This document shows, in pieces, positions 33,052 through 40,823 of a stretch of 64,000 bases of DNA. A model generated the notes under the pieces. It saw only the letters and a program-made list of their open reading frames with translations. It made no database searches and was not told where the DNA came from. Positions within the stretch are counted from its first letter, which is position 1; each line of letters starts with the position of its first letter. The stretch comes from Bacteroidia bacterium. Its GTDB lineage: Bacteria; Bacteroidota; Bacteroidia; B-17B0; Aurantibacillaceae. The DNA lies in the NCBI GenBank assembly GCA_040403535.1, contig JBBAKL010000003.1:35248-99247 (forward strand), read 5' to 3'. Made by a program: the position numbers and the translations under genes.

Positions 33052-33558
33052 ATGGCAAAGCAATCGATAAATTATTTTGAGCTGGAACAAACACCGGAAG
33101 ATTATAATTTTCTTTTGTTTGGTATTGCCAGTTCCGACAATCAATATGTTATTGCTAACGCAATTAACGACGTATTAAACATCGATTTACAACTGGCAGA
33201 TTACATTGACTTAAGTCACCGGATTGGAAAGGACTTTAAGTTTTCGTTTTATAGCTATACCGACGAGGCATTTAACCTTGAATACAATTTAATTCCGAAT
33301 AAAAGCAACTTTGTAGCAAACACAAATGAAAAAAAATCGGAGGGCGATTTATTTGCCATGTTTAACGAATCGGTAGATGAAAGTAGTCGCTTAATTCCTG
33401 AATTAACAAAGACAGATTTTCTGCTTCTCATTAAAGGAGACGAACATTATCACTACGGATACAAAATACAAGAACTACTTAAATCTATACCCGAAATAAT
33501 TTCGTTACAAGAAATCATTCCAGATAAACTAAGCAGCAAGAGTAACCTAATCTTTTAA
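33052..33558 (+). CDS. IPExxxVDY-family protein (Bacteroidota-specific, unknown function)
   Basis: Motif LIPELTKTDFLLLIKG fits IPE-x3-(V/T)D(Y/F), ~168 aa. The family name is recalled, not searched. Confidence 0.5.
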   Translation: MAKQSINYFELEQTPEDYNFLLFGIASSDNQYVIANAINDVLNIDLQLADYIDLSHRIGKDFKFSFYSYTDEAFNLEYNLIPNKSNFVANTNEKKSEGDLFAMFNESVDESSRLIPELTKTDFLLLIKGDEHYHYGYKIQELLKSIPEIISLQEIIPDKLSSKSNLIF

Positions 33559-34596
33559 TAAGGCATCCCAGCCTTGAGCTTTTAACGTAGCCACATTACC
33601 TGACTTGGTGATTAAATGCCTACCACGCTCTTTATTGGTAATATGTCCAATGATGGTAAAGTCTGGAAGATTTTTAACCTTGTCGTAATCCTCTGCTTTA
33701 ATAGTAAACAACAATTCATAATCTTCACCTCCGCTTAGCGCGCATACGGTTGGATCTAATCCAAACTGACGGGCAGTATCGTACGTTTGTTCATCCAGCG
33801 GTATTTTTTCCTCGTACAATTCAACACCTACATCCGATTGCGAACAGATATGTAAGATTTCGGAAGCCAATCCGTCACTTACATCAATCATGGCCGTTGG
33901 AACAACATTAAGTTCATTAAGTAATTTTATAACATCACGACGAGCTTCCGGTTTTAACTGACGTTCCAAAATATAATCCTTACCTTCTAAATCGGGTTGA
34001 ATATTTGGATTTTCTTTAAATACCGATTTTTCTCTCTCAAGAATTTGCAATCCCATATAGGCTCCGCCTAAATCACCACTAACACACAGCAAATTTGTTT
34101 CCTTTGCTCCGTTACGGTAAACTATTTTGTCTTTTTGTCCTTCGCCTAAAACAGTAATACTGATAACCAGTCCGGTTCGTGAGGAAGTAGTATCGCCACC
34201 AACCAGATCAACTCCATACTTTTCACATGCAAGCAACATACCTGCGTATATTTCTTCAACAGCCTCTAAGCTAAAGCGACTTGAAATAGCTATGCTCACT
34301 ACCACTTGTTTAGGCTGGCCATTCATAGCGTAAATATCGCTTAGGTTGACTATTACGGATTTATAACCTAAATGTTTTAATGGCACGTAAGTTAAATCGA
34401 AGTGCACGCCTTCAACCAACATATCAGTTGAAACCAAAGTAACCGTATCGGTATTGGTATAATTTATAACCGCCGCATCATCGCCCACTCCTTTAAGTGT
34501 AGATGCATTTTTAACTTCGATATGCTGGGTTAAATGTTTAATTAATCCGAACTCACCTAATGAGCTAATTTCTGTACGTGATGAATTTTCGAGCAT
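33547..34596 (-). CDS. thiL: Thiamine-monophosphate kinase
   Basis: GEFGLIKHLT, GVGDDAAV, and a PurM-like fold pattern. Confidence 0.9.
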   Translation of the reverse strand: MLENSSRTEISSLGEFGLIKHLTQHIEVKNASTLKGVGDDAAVINYTNTDTVTLVSTDMLVEGVHFDLTYVPLKHLGYKSVIVNLSDIYAMNGQPKQVVVSIAISSRFSLEAVEEIYAGMLLACEKYGVDLVGGDTTSSRTGLVISITVLGEGQKDKIVYRNGAKETNLLCVSGDLGGAYMGLQILEREKSVFKENPNIQPDLEGKDYILERQLKPEARRDVIKLLNELNVVPTAMIDVSDGLASEILHICSQSDVGVELYEEKIPLDEQTYDTARQFGLDPTVCALSGGEDYELLFTIKAEDYDKVKNLPDFTIIGHITNKERGRHLITKSGNVATLKAQGWDALLKD

Positions 34597-34597
34597 G

Positions 34598-36085
34598 TTA
34601 CAAATTTAAATAATATTCAATTAACGCTTTTTTATCTGTTTTATAATTACTGTTTACTGGCATTTCTTTAACCGTAATTATTTCGCTTGGTATCATGTAG
34701 GATGGTAAGTGTTGGGAGATGTTTGTTTTTGTCTCTTCCACATTTAACTCGCCTTCGTTTAAAGTAACAAAAGAAACTATTTTCTTAACGGTATTCCCTT
34801 GTTTTAAAGGAACCGTTACTGCGTTTGTTATGTTATTTTGTTTTTGAAGCACCTCACTAATCTCATCCAATTCGATTCGATAACCATTTAATTTTACCTG
34901 ATTGTCATTCCGACCAAGAAAATAAATCATTTCATTTTTAATGTATCCCTGATCGCCGGTTTTATAAGCACGCTTTCCATTATGCAAGTAAAAGGAAGCT
35001 TCGTTTTTTTCTTTGTTGTTTAAGTAACCTACAGAAACATTATCGCCTACAATAACCAGTTCACCGGTATCTTCTGAATTACCACTTTCGTTTAAGACCA
35101 ACAATTCCGAGTTAGTTTTCATATAGCCAATTGGCAACACAGTTGGGTTTTGCGCTACTATTTCATCGGTCACTTCCAGATAAGTTACAACTACAGTTGC
35201 TTCTGTTGGACCGTATGAATTAACAATGCGAGAAGAAGGAAATACACGTTTCAATTTCTTAACAGTAGTTACAGGGAGTTCTTCACCAATGAAAATATAA
35301 TTTTTTAATGCGGGGTAATTTTGTTCGTTAAATTGAGGTGTAGAGACATACATGTAAATAAACGAAGGGGTACACACCATGACGTTAGCCTGGTATTCGT
35401 TTAAACGATGTAAAAACTTATTCGCATCTTTCAATATCTCGTAATTATTCAACACCATAGTTGCGCCATGATGAAGTGCTCCTATAAAGTCACAAAGCGA
35501 AATATCAAAACTAAATGGTGCCTGATTCATGTAAACACTCTCTCTGTTTATTCCGGGCCAGTTTGCATACCATTTTGTAAAATCATTTAACGCCTGAGCG
35601 GTAATTTGTACACCTTTTGGTTCTCCGGTACTACCTGATGTAAACAATATGTACCGGACGGGATCTGCTTCAACTGTTTTGCTATTTAAGACTGCCGATT
35701 TATTTCCTTTTACCAAATTAAAATCCGAATCAATTATATATTCGATATCGATAGGCGTTGGTTTAGAGGAACAATTAATCATCACCTGAGCTCCCAATAT
35801 GTCGGCAATTTTCTTTACACGTTCGGCAGGCATAATGGCATCTACCGGAACATAAATTGTATTTAAATTGATAAGTGTTAACATGGCGATCGGGAAATTG
35901 GCTTCCTTTTCGCCATAAATCATTACCGGCTTATCATTTGGTAAAAAGTTTAATGCTGTTTTTAATTTTTCACACGATTCATACACTTGTTGCCAATTGA
36001 GTACTTTATCGGTACCAACAATCGCTGGCTTATCCTTCGCAACACTTAACTCTTTAAATTCATTTATATAAAAATTATACCTCAT
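34598..36085 (-). CDS. dltA: DltA-like amino-acid (D-alanine-type) carrier-protein ligase, adenylate-forming
   Basis: ILFTSGSTGEPKGVQIT, NQAPFSFDISL, CTPSF, YGPTEATVVVT, YKTGDQGY. Near-collinear with my recalled (unverified) Bacillus DltA sequence. The start overlaps the dltB-like stop by 1 nt (TAATG). Confidence 0.85.
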   Translation of the reverse strand: MRYNFYINEFKELSVAKDKPAIVGTDKVLNWQQVYESCEKLKTALNFLPNDKPVMIYGEKEANFPIAMLTLINLNTIYVPVDAIMPAERVKKIADILGAQVMINCSSKPTPIDIEYIIDSDFNLVKGNKSAVLNSKTVEADPVRYILFTSGSTGEPKGVQITAQALNDFTKWYANWPGINRESVYMNQAPFSFDISLCDFIGALHHGATMVLNNYEILKDANKFLHRLNEYQANVMVCTPSFIYMYVSTPQFNEQNYPALKNYIFIGEELPVTTVKKLKRVFPSSRIVNSYGPTEATVVVTYLEVTDEIVAQNPTVLPIGYMKTNSELLVLNESGNSEDTGELVIVGDNVSVGYLNNKEKNEASFYLHNGKRAYKTGDQGYIKNEMIYFLGRNDNQVKLNGYRIELDEISEVLQKQNNITNAVTVPLKQGNTVKKIVSFVTLNEGELNVEETKTNISQHLPSYMIPSEIITVKEMPVNSNYKTDKKALIEYYLNL

Positions 36086-37212
36086 TAATGTATTAATCTT
36101 CCGCTAAACACATACAGTGCAAAGCATGCTAAGTTAAACATAATAAAAATGCTAATGTATTTAATTGCAAGCGGTGACATGCTTCCAAAAACAACATCCT
36201 TGTCGTTTACACGGCAATTATATTGGTAAATATTATGAATAACACTATATGCGCCGTAAATAATTCCACTCCAGATAAAATTTGGCTCAAAACCATTCCA
36301 GCATCCCATGGTAAACAAGGTTAAAAATATGGCCAGATTTTGTTTGGTTAATGGAGCCTTTTTTAACTTCTGAAAGCTATTAAGCCATTTGTAAAAAGGC
36401 TTGAATAAATAATCGGTTAACCAGTTAGTTAAACTTGCGTGCCAACGCTGCCAGAAATCGGGTGGATTAACAGCAAGAAACGGCGCATTAAAGTTAAACG
36501 GAACATTTATGCCAACCAATTTACCCATACCTACTGCCATAGCCGAATAACCCGCAAAATCAAAAAACAAATAAATGGTATAAGAATACATTTCATTTAA
36601 AAGCCACAATGGTTTGGTGCTCTCAAATAAATTAACATTTAACCAATAACGGGAAATAAATTCGGCAATTATAAACTTATATAAAACTCCAATTGAAAAT
36701 TCTTGTAAGCCACTTTCAATCTGAGGCGCATTAATGGATTCAAAGCCATTATTACAGTTTTCGGTAAAGCGTTTAAAACGATCTAAAGGACCAATATAGA
36801 ACGAGGGAATAAAGCAAAGAAAATTGGCATAATCCAAAAAATTAATTTTGGTTTTGTAATCACTGTCAAGCAAAACCTGCGCTGCCCTAAAACACACAAA
36901 CGATAAGCCGGCGAAATACATAAAAGGAAGACTAACATGTATTTTAAAAAGTATCATTGGAATGAGTAGAATAACTGTACTCCATAATTTATGATTGATG
37001 TATTTTGCCAGATAACTAGTAAACACATAACTAAATAGAACATAAATGCCCAACTCAATTCCATAACGAAAATACAGTGAGAAGTAAACCAAGGTTAATA
37101 TGAATGTCACTTCACGGTAAACACCCGACTTAATGGTCAACTTGCAAACCCATATTACCAACACATATACCAGTGCGAATACAAAAAAATCTATGTCAGT
37201 GAATGGTAACAT
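36085..37212 (-). CDS. dltB: DltB-like MBOAT-family membrane O-acyltransferase
   Basis: Polytopic membrane protein with MBOAT catalytic-His region FWQRWHASLTNWLTDYLFKPFY. Confidence 0.85.
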   Translation of the reverse strand: MLPFTDIDFFVFALVYVLVIWVCKLTIKSGVYREVTFILTLVYFSLYFRYGIELGIYVLFSYVFTSYLAKYINHKLWSTVILLIPMILFKIHVSLPFMYFAGLSFVCFRAAQVLLDSDYKTKINFLDYANFLCFIPSFYIGPLDRFKRFTENCNNGFESINAPQIESGLQEFSIGVLYKFIIAEFISRYWLNVNLFESTKPLWLLNEMYSYTIYLFFDFAGYSAMAVGMGKLVGINVPFNFNAPFLAVNPPDFWQRWHASLTNWLTDYLFKPFYKWLNSFQKLKKAPLTKQNLAIFLTLFTMGCWNGFEPNFIWSGIIYGAYSVIHNIYQYNCRVNDKDVVFGSMSPLAIKYISIFIMFNLACFALYVFSGRLIH

Positions 37213-37352
37213 TAAAATTGCGCGTAAATAAAGGAGAATGAAGAATGCGGTTTGTTATCAGCATGTTTATTTAACGGGTGGTACAAATAGTACACACCAA
37301 TTAAAATGAAGGCATACATCAAAATATTTAATATGATTTTTTTGAAATTCAT
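37212..37352 (-). CDS. dltX: DltX-like 46-aa single-TM micro-protein (not in the ORF track)
   Basis: Hand translation MNFKKIILNILMYAFILIGVYYLYHPLNKHADNKPHSSFSFIYAQF. The ATG overlaps the dltD-like stop (ATGA) and the TAA overlaps the dltB-like ATG (TAATG). The C-terminal hexapeptide FIYAQF resembles the conserved DltX tail as I recall it. Confidence 0.6.
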   Translation of the reverse strand: MNFKKIILNILMYAFILIGVYYLYHPLNKHADNKPHSSFSFIYAQF

Positions 37353-38548
37353 TCCTTGCAATATAAATTTTCGTTTATGAATTTATTAATCTGATACCAA
37401 CCATAATCGTATGGGTGCATAATATCCTCTAAAACACCAATGTCGTATTTTTTTATATTTGGGGTAAACATATCCAAATAAGTAAATCCGCCTTCGTCGA
37501 GTGATTTTCTAACCTCATCAATTGCCGGTCCCAGTTTTTCTAAGCCGTCATGAGCTAAAGTGTTTAAAGGTGTAATAACAAAACAAGGCTTTACATTATT
37601 CGACTTAAGAAATTGAATTAACGCTTTAAAATCATTTAACTCATTATTGGAAATGATAGGCACCGGATGAACATCCTTTTTATTCCCGCTACTCATCCAT
37701 TTAGAATAATACGCTTTAGCTACACCAAAAGAATTGTTGGAACATTGCTTTTTAAAATTCTCTTTAGAAACAACCAATAAAGAATCCCAATTTTCATTCA
37801 CGCAATTCATGATTCTTTTTTTAGGCTTCATCTTTGTAAGCTCATTTATTATCATTTCCTGAATTAAAAAATCGACCGAATAATTAATAGTGTTATTCAA
37901 TAAGTCGTTATTCAGTTTTACAAAAGGTTTATGAAATAATTTTAATTTATTAGCACGATGTGCGTATATGCGATGTAAACTGCCAGGCGAAGCAATTTTT
38001 TCGTATTGACTATTAACATATTTACTTATGTGGTTTTTAGTGTGTAAATCAATAGTTGTGTCTTTAAATATAGTGTACAGGTAACTCTCAGGACAAAACT
38101 CAAAAAACGAAGCAAGAGATGTTCCTTTAGCGTAATTACCTTCGAACCAACCCGGCGAAAGTATGATGAGCAAGCGAGAATTTTTTAGTAATTCTTTATT
38201 TGCGGCCAATACGGTTAACATGGCTAAATTTTGAAATCCGGCATGTCCAAATGCAAACAAATCTGCATGCTTTACTTCATTAAAATATCTATAGGGAACC
38301 CCCACTAAATGATTAGAGGTAAGTTCTGAAGAACCGAAAACAACAGGTGTACCGTTCGCCAGATTTCCGGAGAGATTAATTTGTCCTTTTAAATTATCAT
38401 CATAAAAATGATCGATAAATTTTTCAGAACCATATTTAGGAATAACAAATTTTGAGGATTCGGATTTTGAAACAGCAGGCTTAAAAGCAAAAAACAATAT
38501 TAGCCCAACACAAAAGGTTAGAATATAATATATAAAAATGTTTTTCAC
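37349..38548 (-). CDS. dltD: DltD-like membrane-anchored SGNH-type acyl transferase/esterase
   Basis: N-terminal TM segment IFIYYILTFCVGLILFFAF, Ser motif VVFGSSELTS, and C-terminal D-x-x-H motif LEDIMHPYDYGW. Confidence 0.75.
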   Translation of the reverse strand: MKNIFIYYILTFCVGLILFFAFKPAVSKSESSKFVIPKYGSEKFIDHFYDDNLKGQINLSGNLANGTPVVFGSSELTSNHLVGVPYRYFNEVKHADLFAFGHAGFQNLAMLTVLAANKELLKNSRLLIILSPGWFEGNYAKGTSLASFFEFCPESYLYTIFKDTTIDLHTKNHISKYVNSQYEKIASPGSLHRIYAHRANKLKLFHKPFVKLNNDLLNNTINYSVDFLIQEMIINELTKMKPKKRIMNCVNENWDSLLVVSKENFKKQCSNNSFGVAKAYYSKWMSSGNKKDVHPVPIISNNELNDFKALIQFLKSNNVKPCFVITPLNTLAHDGLEKLGPAIDEVRKSLDEGGFTYLDMFTPNIKKYDIGVLEDIMHPYDYGWYQINKFINENLYCKE

Positions 38549-38784
38549 TTCTGAATTTTAGTGATTAAGAGCTGCTGTATGGTTAAAGCGTCCTTAAAAT
38601 TTTCGGCATTAATTTCATTAAATGGTACCGATATACCCAGTTCTTCTTCCAAAGCGTTAGTTAAATCAACTACCAGTATAGATGTGAGGATACCTGATTT
38701 CAAAAGCTCGTCCTCCGGTTTTACCTTTTTGAAAGAGACTTCTTTTATTTTATCCAGAATAATATTTAATAGATCTTCTGCCAT
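38545..38784 (-). CDS. dltC: DltC-like acyl/aminoacyl carrier protein
   Basis: 79 aa. The phosphopantetheine Ser context SGILTSILVVDL aligns with DltC EGLLDSFGTVEL. There is a 4-nt overlap with the dltD-like start and a TAATG overlap with the upstream ALDH stop. Confidence 0.7.
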   Translation of the reverse strand: MAEDLLNIILDKIKEVSFKKVKPEDELLKSGILTSILVVDLTNALEEELGISVPFNEINAENFKDALTIQQLLITKIQK

Positions 38785-40229
38785 TATTTCAATTTAACAC
38801 ACACATTTTTAGGTTCGGTAAAGAAATCAAACGCTTCAAACCCACCTTCACGACCAACACCAGATGATTTTACGCCACCAAATGGTGTGCGCAAATCACG
38901 TAATAACCAGCAATTGATCCAAACAATTCCGGCGTGTAATTCATTTGCAACGCGGTTTGCTTTAGTGATATCTTGTGTCCAAACAGTAGAAGCTAATCCG
39001 TACATGGTAGAGTTGGCCATCATTAACACTTCCTCTTCTTTGTCAAAAGGAGTAATGGTAACCACCGGACCAAATATTTCTTCCTGATTAGTGCGACAAT
39101 TGTACGACAATCCTTCGATTATTGTTGGCTCTATATAAAATCCGTTTTCAAATTCACCATCAATTATTTTTCGTTTACCGCCACATAAAACTTTTCCACC
39201 TTCTTGTTGCGCTAATTCCACATAACTCAGAATTTTTTCCATATGTGATTTAGACACAACAGCGCCGATTTTCACTCCTTCTTGTAGCGGTTGTCCAACC
39301 GTTAGTTTCTTGGTACGCTCAACAAAATCATTCTTAAATTTTTCATATATAGAACGCTCAACAAAAATCCGGGAGCCACATAAACAAATTTGGCCTTGGT
39401 TAGCGAACGATGACAACATAGTTGTAGAAAGCATTTTTTCGTAATCGCAATCAGCAAAAATGATATTAGGATTTTTTCCTCCTAATTCTAAAGACATTTT
39501 CTTAAACATTGGTCCCGCTACGCTGGCAATATGTGCACCTGTTTTTGTTCCGCCGGTAAATGAAATAAGCGGAATATCTTTATGAGACACAATCGCGTTA
39601 CCTACTTTAGGACCTAAACCGTGCACAATATTTAAAACGCCTTTAGGTAATCCTGCCTGCATACAAATCTCAGAAAGCAAATACGCCGTCATAGGCGTGA
39701 CCTCAGATGGCTTGGCAACTACTGTGCAGCCTGCAGCAAGAGCAGGAGCAATTTTCCAGGTGAATAAATAAAGAGGTAAATTCCACGGTGAGATACAACC
39801 TGCCACGCCAACCGGTTGACGAAGGGTATAATTAATTGCCGTATCTTCCATTGCATGCGCATGCGACGAATAATGTAAAATTCCGGTTGCATAAAAGTTA
39901 AAATTAGCTGCTGCTCGTGGTATATCAACTGATTTTGCTAAATGTAAAGGCTTACCATTATCAACGCTTTCGATAAAAGCCAGCTTATCTAAATTCTCCT
40001 CTATTAAAAAAGAGATTTTTTGTAATATACGGGATCGTGTTTCCTTTGGCGTATTACTCCAGCCTTTAAAAGCAGCTTTTGCCGCTTGAGTAGCTAATGC
40101 AACATCACGTTCATCACTATCAGGAATCAACGAATAAACTCTCCCTCTAGACGGATCAACATTATCAATATACTGGTTACTTACTGGCGGAACCAATTCA
40201 CCATTTATGTAATTCTGTATTTTATCCAT
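38784..40229 (-). CDS. NAD(P)-dependent aldehyde dehydrogenase (ALDH8 / muconate-semialdehyde dehydrogenase-like subfamily)
   Basis: LELGGKNP (catalytic Glu), QGQICLCGSR (catalytic Cys), FTGGTKTG, and IPRAAANFNFYA. The subfamily assignment is tentative. Confidence 0.85.
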   Translation of the reverse strand: MDKIQNYINGELVPPVSNQYIDNVDPSRGRVYSLIPDSDERDVALATQAAKAAFKGWSNTPKETRSRILQKISFLIEENLDKLAFIESVDNGKPLHLAKSVDIPRAAANFNFYATGILHYSSHAHAMEDTAINYTLRQPVGVAGCISPWNLPLYLFTWKIAPALAAGCTVVAKPSEVTPMTAYLLSEICMQAGLPKGVLNIVHGLGPKVGNAIVSHKDIPLISFTGGTKTGAHIASVAGPMFKKMSLELGGKNPNIIFADCDYEKMLSTTMLSSFANQGQICLCGSRIFVERSIYEKFKNDFVERTKKLTVGQPLQEGVKIGAVVSKSHMEKILSYVELAQQEGGKVLCGGKRKIIDGEFENGFYIEPTIIEGLSYNCRTNQEEIFGPVVTITPFDKEEEVLMMANSTMYGLASTVWTQDITKANRVANELHAGIVWINCWLLRDLRTPFGGVKSSGVGREGGFEAFDFFTEPKNVCVKLK

Positions 40230-40790: not shown

Positions 40791-40823
40791 CAAAAATGCC
40801 CTCAGAAAAAGAGGGCATTTTTA
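40791..40823 (-). terminator. Intrinsic terminator after coxI
   Basis: caaaaatgccctc-agaaaaa-gagggcattttt. Confidence 0.65.

Follow-up and report, generated by a model that had tools for sequence, protein, structure and literature searches.

A micro-ORF between the dltD-like and dltB-like genes

The window analyzed here is a 64,000-nucleotide stretch of contig JBBAKL010000003.1 (assembly GCA_040403535.1) from a Bacteroidia bacterium, and it carries on its minus strand a compact array of dlt-like genes in the order dltC-dltD-X-dltB-dltA. Our subject is the element X, a dltX-like micro-open reading frame (micro-ORF; 37212..37352, minus strand, on which all genes described below also lie) of 46 codons plus a TAA stop. 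A preliminary description of this DNA had proposed that the apparent 136-bp gap between two large ORFs is filled by a single 46-amino acid frame that overlaps both of its neighbors, and our reading of the minus strand confirms this. The gap between the 399- and 375-residue ORFs (37213..37348, 136 bp) is filled exactly by the micro-ORF, whose ATG (37352..37350) shares the tetranucleotide ATGA with the TGA stop of the upstream dltD-like ORF and whose TAA (37214..37212) forms TAATG with the start codon of the dltB-like ORF downstream. The translated product is MNFKKIILNILMYAFILIGVYYLYHPLNKHADNKPHSSFSFIYAQF, of 46 amino acids. A mechanical ORF list gives this frame in a 49-amino acid form that begins at a TTG three codons upstream of the ATG; this upstream start is not conserved, and the closest relative of the window locus (L001) has a stop codon one codon before the ATG.

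The gene upstream of the micro-ORF (37349..38548) encodes a 399-residue dltD-like, SGNH-type protein that matches the Pfam DltD family with an E-value of 1.5e-44 and spans model positions 9-345 of 348. The gene downstream (36085..37212) encodes a 375-residue dltB-like MBOAT that matches TIGR04091 (DltB) over its full length at 2.4e-71, with the alignment beginning at residue 3. The micro-ORF product itself has a predicted single transmembrane helix at residues 6-24 (IILNILMYAFILIGVYYLY; 37281..37337), a hydrophobic 19-mer with a mean Kyte-Doolittle value of 2.07 that is the only such segment in the peptide and that aligns with the helix of DltX. The segment is hydrophobic across the family as well (mean 1.85, minimum 1.24, n = 63), and three near-invariant residues, Y13, L23, and Y24, lie within it. 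The peptide ends in the hexapeptide FIYAQF (37215..37232), an instance of FxYxxF in which the codon for Tyr43 occupies 37224..37226. In DltX, the FXYXXF motif forms the C terminus, and its tyrosine receives D-alanine from DltB and passes it to the serine of DltD (PMC12148441). The assignment of the two flanking genes, the single helix, and the FIYxxF ending had all been put forward in the preliminary description and hold up here; its account of the DltX hexapeptide, with the tyrosine as D-alanine acceptor, agrees with PMC12148441 and PMC13653941. A second F.Y..F-stop signature is present in the window, FLYIIF followed by a stop codon at about 38518..38538 on the minus strand. It belongs to an ORF of <30 residues that overlaps the start of dltD in another frame, and it is taken to be a chance occurrence in AT-rich, hydrophobic-coding DNA.

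Conservation, selection, and relationship to Firmicute DltX

A scan with a DltD profile, covering one genome per GTDB species, recovered 65 loci (L002-L066), all of them in Bacteroidota metagenome-assembled genomes and with DltD proteins 28-49% identical to that of the window. One additional contig, from Logan, encodes a peptide 91% identical to the window micro-ORF product. The 65 loci come mostly from freshwater, soil, or wastewater; several of their species labels are doubtful, and they include no cultured Bacteroidota isolate. The lack of an isolate limits direct experiments.

The gene order dltC-dltD-X-dltB-dltA is kept throughout the recovered loci. Wherever DNA continues downstream of dltD and the X-B-A block is present (62/62 loci), the junction contains an ORF of 44-60 residues that ends in F[IV]Y[AQ][QNK]F-stop; 60 of these 62 loci extend to dltB. 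Of the four loci that lack the micro-ORF, three are on contigs that break off within dltD, and the fourth is a stand-alone dltC-dltD pair with neither dltB nor dltA. The micro-ORF start overlaps the dltD stop as ATGA in 34 loci, and its stop overlaps the dltB start or falls within 4 nucleotides of it in 57. The only residues invariant among the 48 distinct sequences are F41, Y43, and F46; Y13, L23, Y24, and Q45 are conserved in at least 90%. For 52 sequence pairs that share 75-99% of their nucleotides, the ratio of nonsynonymous to synonymous polymorphism (pN/pS) is 0.19 in the micro-ORF frame and rises to 1.17 and 1.93 when the frame is shifted, and the codon-position entropy is maximal at the third position. 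The window and L001 alone differ by 12 synonymous and 3 nonsynonymous changes in 38 codons. In a six-frame count over L001-L066 (1.4 million codon positions), the F.Y..F-stop signature occurs 85 times, 62 times at the dltD/dltB junction and 23 times elsewhere. Outside the junction the background is thus ≈1.6e-5 per codon, which excludes a chance origin for the micro-ORF. The 46-codon frame is a real gene under purifying, protein-level selection.

The stand-alone pair lies in a Bacteroidales metagenome-assembled genome (JAOARD010000044.1; L055, 5727..7200) that has a complete cluster elsewhere (L052), which makes it a second dltC-dltD pair in that genome. It is followed by a peroxiredoxin-like gene, with no micro-ORF, dltB, or dltA after the pair. 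On the opposite strand are ORFs that resemble a sugar transferase, a DegT-type aminotransferase, and a glycosyltransferase, as judged from the sequences alone with no family search.

We compared the micro-ORF family with authentic DltX proteins by profile-profile alignment. The reference set consisted of the Bacillus thuringiensis sequence given by Kamar et al. 2017 with its database relatives, dltX genes annotated in Staphylococcus aureus and Listeria, and a Niallia frame that carries no annotation and was detected with tblastn, the last three from plasmid-collection records. With B. thuringiensis DltX as query, only B. cereus-group sequences were returned, and the diversity of the set was added from the plasmid collection. 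Seven of these Firmicute sequences, with the biochemically studied S. aureus protein among them, were used. Aligned with hhalign, the 48-sequence micro-ORF profile matches them with 95.5% probability (E = 1.4e-8, score 38.0), pairing helix with helix and tail with tail; the Bacteroidota linker has 7 inserted residues. Both families share a Y-x9-L-Y helix pattern. When the last six columns were removed from both alignments, the score was still 34.0; by comparison, 200 column shuffles gave a mean of 9.1 (standard deviation 2.3, maximum 18.1), the reversed alignment gave 16.4, and none of 68 slices taken from the DltB and DltD alignments (19 hydrophobic) exceeded 14.4. A score of 34.0 without the hexapeptide, against controls of no more than 18.1, indicates that the similarity to DltX is specific and reaches beyond the terminal motif. 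From these profile comparisons, we conclude that the micro-ORF product is a divergent DltX homolog.

The only Pfam family with repeated matches among the micro-ORFs is PF12459, the DltX family, which is hit by 31 of the 48 members with a best E-value of 5.7e-4. A match of the window peptide to DUF6007 (3e-4, below cutoff) is seen in 1 of the 48 members only and was set aside as transmembrane-helix noise. The NCBIfam library returned no DltX match for the peptide or the family; it also returned none for the S. aureus and B. thuringiensis DltX controls, so this negative is uninformative and the library contains no usable DltX model. A profile search of the Protein Data Bank (PDB) for a solved DltX chain returned noise only (ATP synthase protein 8, TRP channels), and none was found at this sensitivity.

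The family can be followed well beyond these loci. A 12-member profile searched against 1.84 billion representative proteins yielded 67 clusters at E ≤ 1e-3, of which 66 are proteins of 39-65 residues that align end to end and terminate in F[IV]Yxx-F; the remaining one is a spurious membrane protein. There was no significant Firmicute DltX in this search. In a collection of 15 billion proteins, the exact window peptide is absent although the neighboring DltD is present at 100% identity, with NCBI among the sources of that entry. Exact look-up found the peptides of 8 of 10 relatives there, carried as unnamed entries or as 'hypothetical protein' only; a word-indexed search with the window peptide returned a single relative, which reflects the sensitivity limit of that search. 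The preliminary description had held that automatic ORF calling misses this gene. That part stands for the window genome and for the Aliarcobacter assemblies discussed below, but not for the relatives, whose peptides are mostly called and merely lack a name. The general annotation failure is one of naming and recognition rather than of ORF calling, since the one curated DltX model falls short of the micro-ORF subfamily. In other respects the earlier proposal has fared well: the loss of frame or motif that it had named as its refutation is seen in none of the related loci that have the junction, the likeness to DltX sequences is not confined to the hexapeptide, and conservation, selection, and profile-profile alignment together support a DltX-like microprotein with a terminal FxYxxF as the would-be acyl-shuttle motif.

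The surrounding dlt-like genes

The dltA-like gene (34598..36085) encodes a 495-residue predicted amino acid-adenylating ligase that matches DltA models at ≈1e-130 and B. cereus DltA structures at 5e-93. The dltC-like gene (38545..38784) encodes a 79-residue carrier protein with matches to PP-binding (1.2e-5) and, below cutoff, to the DltC model PRK05087 (1.7e-6). DltC is its best named match, and phosphopantetheine is presumably attached at its conserved Ser35. This serine (38680..38682) sits in the context ILTSI, compared with iLDSi in Bacteroidota relatives and IIDSF in S. aureus DltC; the aspartate that usually precedes the phosphopantetheinyl serine is a threonine in the window carrier protein. 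Alignment with the S. aureus proteins (from a plasmid-collection record) and with 52-64 Bacteroidota homologs shows that the catalytic residues are kept throughout the cluster, namely Asp194, which binds the amino group, and Lys482 in DltA, Ser35 in DltC, His258 in DltB, and Ser74, Asp375, and His378 in DltD. The GSSEL and DxxH motifs are invariant in the DltD-like proteins. The only PDB relatives of the MBOAT are DltB structures (6BUG/8JEM, 2e-36). Its C terminus, ...FALYVFSGRLIH, ends in FSGRLIH like that of S. aureus DltB, and end-to-end alignment of the 375 residues with DltB reveals no FxYxxF motif fused to it.

None of the four larger proteins reaches the NCBIfam cutoffs. The bit scores, with the cutoffs in parentheses, are 241 (375) for DltB, 134 (150) for DltD, 28 (68) for DltC, and, for the DltA-like ligase, 417 (560) with the equivalog model TIGR01734 and 436 (476) with the subfamily model NF003417. 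By sequence they are clear homologs of DltA, DltB, DltC, and DltD that form a divergent branch, and they are not equivalogs by the NCBI cutoffs.

The four genes and the micro-ORF are contiguous in one array with overlapping stop and start codons: TAATG between an aldehyde dehydrogenase gene (38784..40229) and dltC, GTGA between dltC and dltD, ATGA between dltD and X, and TAATG both between X and dltB and between dltB and dltA. At the other end, a 1-nucleotide gap separates dltA from a thiL-like gene (33547..34596). In the related loci L003, L006, L008-L010, and L029, both of these flanking genes are found downstream of dltA, which suggests that insertion or rearrangement brought the dlt block to its place inside a conserved aldehyde dehydrogenase-thiL neighborhood. 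A strong terminator-like hairpin (40791..40823) with a 12-13-bp stem and a T-run lies between cytochrome oxidase genes and the SRPBCC/aldehyde dehydrogenase/dlt array, and it is probably the upstream boundary of the dlt-containing transcription unit. Rfam has no family above its gathering score in the 64-kb window, whether rRNA, riboswitch, or other curated RNA family. A sigma-70 promoter scan found fewer sites than in shuffled controls, the sigma-70 model being ill-suited to Bacteroidota.

A putative tyrosine acyl shuttle in diderm bacteria

We consider it very probable that the micro-ORF is a conserved and translated gene for a divergent DltX ortholog, coupled in translation to dltD and dltB, and that its product serves as the tyrosine acyl shuttle of a diderm-type dltC-D-X-B-A operon. 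MBOATs that work without DltX bear FXYXXF on their own C terminus (PMC12148441). The window MBOAT has no fused shuttle motif and would thus need a separate DltX. In the proposed pathway, the DltA-like ligase would adenylate an amino acid in the cytoplasm and load it onto the phosphopantetheine arm of the DltC-like carrier. The DltB-like MBOAT, through His258, would then move the aminoacyl group across the inner membrane to Tyr43 of the periplasmic FIYAQF tail. The single helix would anchor the microprotein beside DltB, leaving a flexible tail of ≈16 residues beyond the helix. This tail would carry the aminoacyl-tyrosine ester over to the DltD-like SGNH protein and its Ser74, and DltD in turn would hand the aminoacyl group to an envelope acceptor. 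In Lactobacillus plantarum, the DltX tail binds the DltD active site (PMC13653941). We infer the acylation of the tyrosine, the order of transfer, and the N-in/C-out topology by analogy with the biochemistry of Firmicute Dlt and of PatA/PatB.

The Firmicute DltX proteins (PF12459; S. aureus, B. thuringiensis, L. plantarum, Streptococcus thermophilus) resemble the micro-ORF product in their length of ≈50 residues, their one helix with its Y-x9-L-Y pattern, and a short tail, presumably extracytoplasmic in the micro-ORF product as well, with FxYxxF at the extreme C terminus. Several observations nevertheless weigh against a straightforward equation of the two systems. The window peptide scores 7.9 bits against PF12459 (E = 3.1), far below the gathering score of 25, whereas the S. 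aureus and B. thuringiensis DltX controls score 53.2 and 75.7 bits. With its C-D-X-B-A order, the window cluster has the gene between dltD and dltB, whereas dltX is located upstream of dltA in Firmicutes, as in the X-A-B-C-D order of S. aureus. The linker between helix and motif spans 15-20 residues instead of the 6-10 found in Firmicutes, ≈7 residues longer, and the tail consensus is FVYQQF or FIYAQF rather than FIYNEF. The positive-inside signal of the microprotein is modest, with an average net charge across the family of +1.8 on the N-terminal side and +0.6 on the C-terminal side and with the N-terminal side the more positive in 42 of 63 sequences, so that an N-in/C-out topology is weakly supported. 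The cysteine of the DltA pocket is not conserved, its position being Ile266 in the window (35288..35290). Teichoic acids, moreover, are not known from Bacteroidota.

Three other explanations have to be weighed. A single 46-codon frame in DNA of 28% G+C content is not improbable on its own, and the window peptide is missing from a very large protein collection, both of which would suit a frame that is open by chance in an AT-rich spacer, or a piece of dltD or dltB split off by a frameshift or an assembly error. Frame, length, overlaps, and terminal motif are kept in 62 independent assemblies, however, with a pN/pS of 0.19 set against values of >1 in the other frames, and the DltD and DltB proteins are complete, with nothing missing from either neighbor; the probability that the micro-ORF is not a gene is close to negligible, its conservation and selection having already refuted this reading. 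A real gene could still encode a protein that works like DltX and stands outside its family, a helix with an FxYxxF tail recruited, for example, from the C-terminal helix of a motif-bearing MBOAT. Kamar et al. 2017 described Gram-negative DltX proteins with the same topology and no sequence similarity, and such convergence would also fit the subthreshold Pfam score, the different gene position and linker length, and an Aliarcobacter peptide that is not detectably related to Firmicute DltX in direct comparison (2.2%). The hhalign match (95.5%, E = 1.4e-8), the shared Y-x9-L-Y pattern, and a score of 34 without the motif, against at most 18 in the controls, point the other way. Because DltA, DltB, and DltD are clear homologs of their Firmicute counterparts, vertical coinheritance of the fifth component is the simpler account, and we regard convergence as very unlikely.

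In the remaining alternative, the conserved microprotein would be only a structural or assembly subunit whose helix joins DltB to DltD or regulates DltB, with a tail that acts as a docking peptide and a tyrosine that is never acylated. The transmembrane part indeed carries most of the similarity to DltX (34 of a score of 38), AlphaFold 3 models show helix-helix contacts between DltX and DltD (PMC13653941), and a regulatory role is discussed in PMC11035591. Yet the only residues that are invariant in the 48 sequences are the three aromatics of the shuttle motif at the extreme C terminus. FxYxxF is an acyl carrier in two biochemically studied systems (PMC12148441), and with a partner MBOAT that lacks a motif of its own, some other acyl acceptor would have to be invented. 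A purely structural role is quite unlikely on this evidence, and a tyrosine shuttle of the DltX type is the reading that we carry forward.

The PatA/PatB system of peptidoglycan O-acetylation, with its AlgI-type MBOAT, offers an instructive parallel. Its acyl group passes from an MBOAT histidine to the tyrosine of a C-terminal FxYxxF, then to an SGNH serine, and finally to a polymer, the relay that is proposed for the window cluster, and MBOAT-SGNH pairs of this kind also work in Gram-negative periplasms. The tail of Neisseria gonorrhoeae PatA, FIYANF, differs from FIYAQF at one position (PMC12148441). In PatA and other AlgI-type proteins, however, the motif resides on two extra helices of the MBOAT itself and the donor is acetyl-CoA (PMC12148441), whereas the window cluster has the motif on a separate gene, a DltB-like MBOAT, and a DltA/DltC pair to supply the aminoacyl group.

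The arrangement also occurs outside the Bacteroidota, in Aliarcobacter butzleri (Campylobacterota), which has the identical order dltC-dltD-micro-ORF-MBOAT-dltA. In a contig from Logan SRR18076128 (L070, 7139..7279), the 150-nucleotide gap between dltD and the MBOAT gene contains a 46-residue ORF, MKYFLKIFFIYLFLIVGLLHILMDANISDLIGNDVESDVEFVYEEF, that ends in FVYEEF. Its stop overlaps the MBOAT start, and the ORF is uncalled in the assemblies examined. It matches the Bacteroidota profile with 94.7% probability, compared with 2.2% for the Firmicute DltX profile. On the basis of its sequence, this ORF is a predicted DltX-type microprotein in Campylobacterota. At least two phyla thus share the C-D-X-B-A order, a diderm-type arrangement.

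The identity of the cargo and of its acceptor calls for separate consideration. In B. cereus DltA, Cys269 lies under the Cα of D-alanine and is a major determinant of selectivity for the D over the L enantiomer (PMC4176424). S. aureus DltA reads FCGE at the equivalent position, and the residue aligned with Cys269 in 52 Bacteroidota homologs is Met in 25, Cys in 14, Ile in 8, Leu in 3, and Ala in 2. With Ile266 in place of this cysteine, 'D-alanyl' is an assumption for the window cluster. The aspartate that binds the α-amino group is kept, which indicates that the substrate is an amino acid; the one activated by the DltA-like enzyme may be other than D-alanine. As for the acceptor, reports on Gram-negative dlt-like loci describe the modification of lipopolysaccharide or an outer-membrane component, and the diderm Dlt homologs of Bordetella pertussis (dra) and of Dickeya and Pectobacterium (dlt) have an outer-membrane or lipopolysaccharide-associated target rather than teichoic acid. 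In the literature library that was searched, we found no description of, or experimental work on, Bacteroidota dlt loci, which is not proof of absence. Tentatively, the dltC-D-X-B-A clusters of Bacteroidota and Aliarcobacter could constitute a distinct diderm Dlt lineage whose chemistry is unlike teichoic acid D-alanylation, a possibility to which we give less than even weight. Such a lineage would transfer a small amino acid, perhaps not D-alanine, to a periplasmic or outer-membrane acceptor (lipopolysaccharide, lipid A, a glycan, or a protein), with the longer linker as an adaptation to that geometry. The cargo need not be D-alanine, because most members have Met, Ile, or Leu in place of the enantiomer-selecting DltA cysteine.

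The mechanism proposed here is a known one; what is new is an unrecognized DltX-type member in an uncharacterized diderm gene cluster. The subfamily is missed by the Pfam DltX model, and a profile built from the micro-ORF alignment would close this annotation gap. The tyrosine acyl shuttle was established only recently, and only in Firmicute Dlt and PatA/PatB; our results would extend it to Bacteroidota and Campylobacterota. If this is true, the five-component design would be ancestral or transferable across the divide between monoderms and diderms and not a Gram-positive peculiarity, and the micro-ORF would open a route to the envelope molecule that is aminoacylated in these bacteria.

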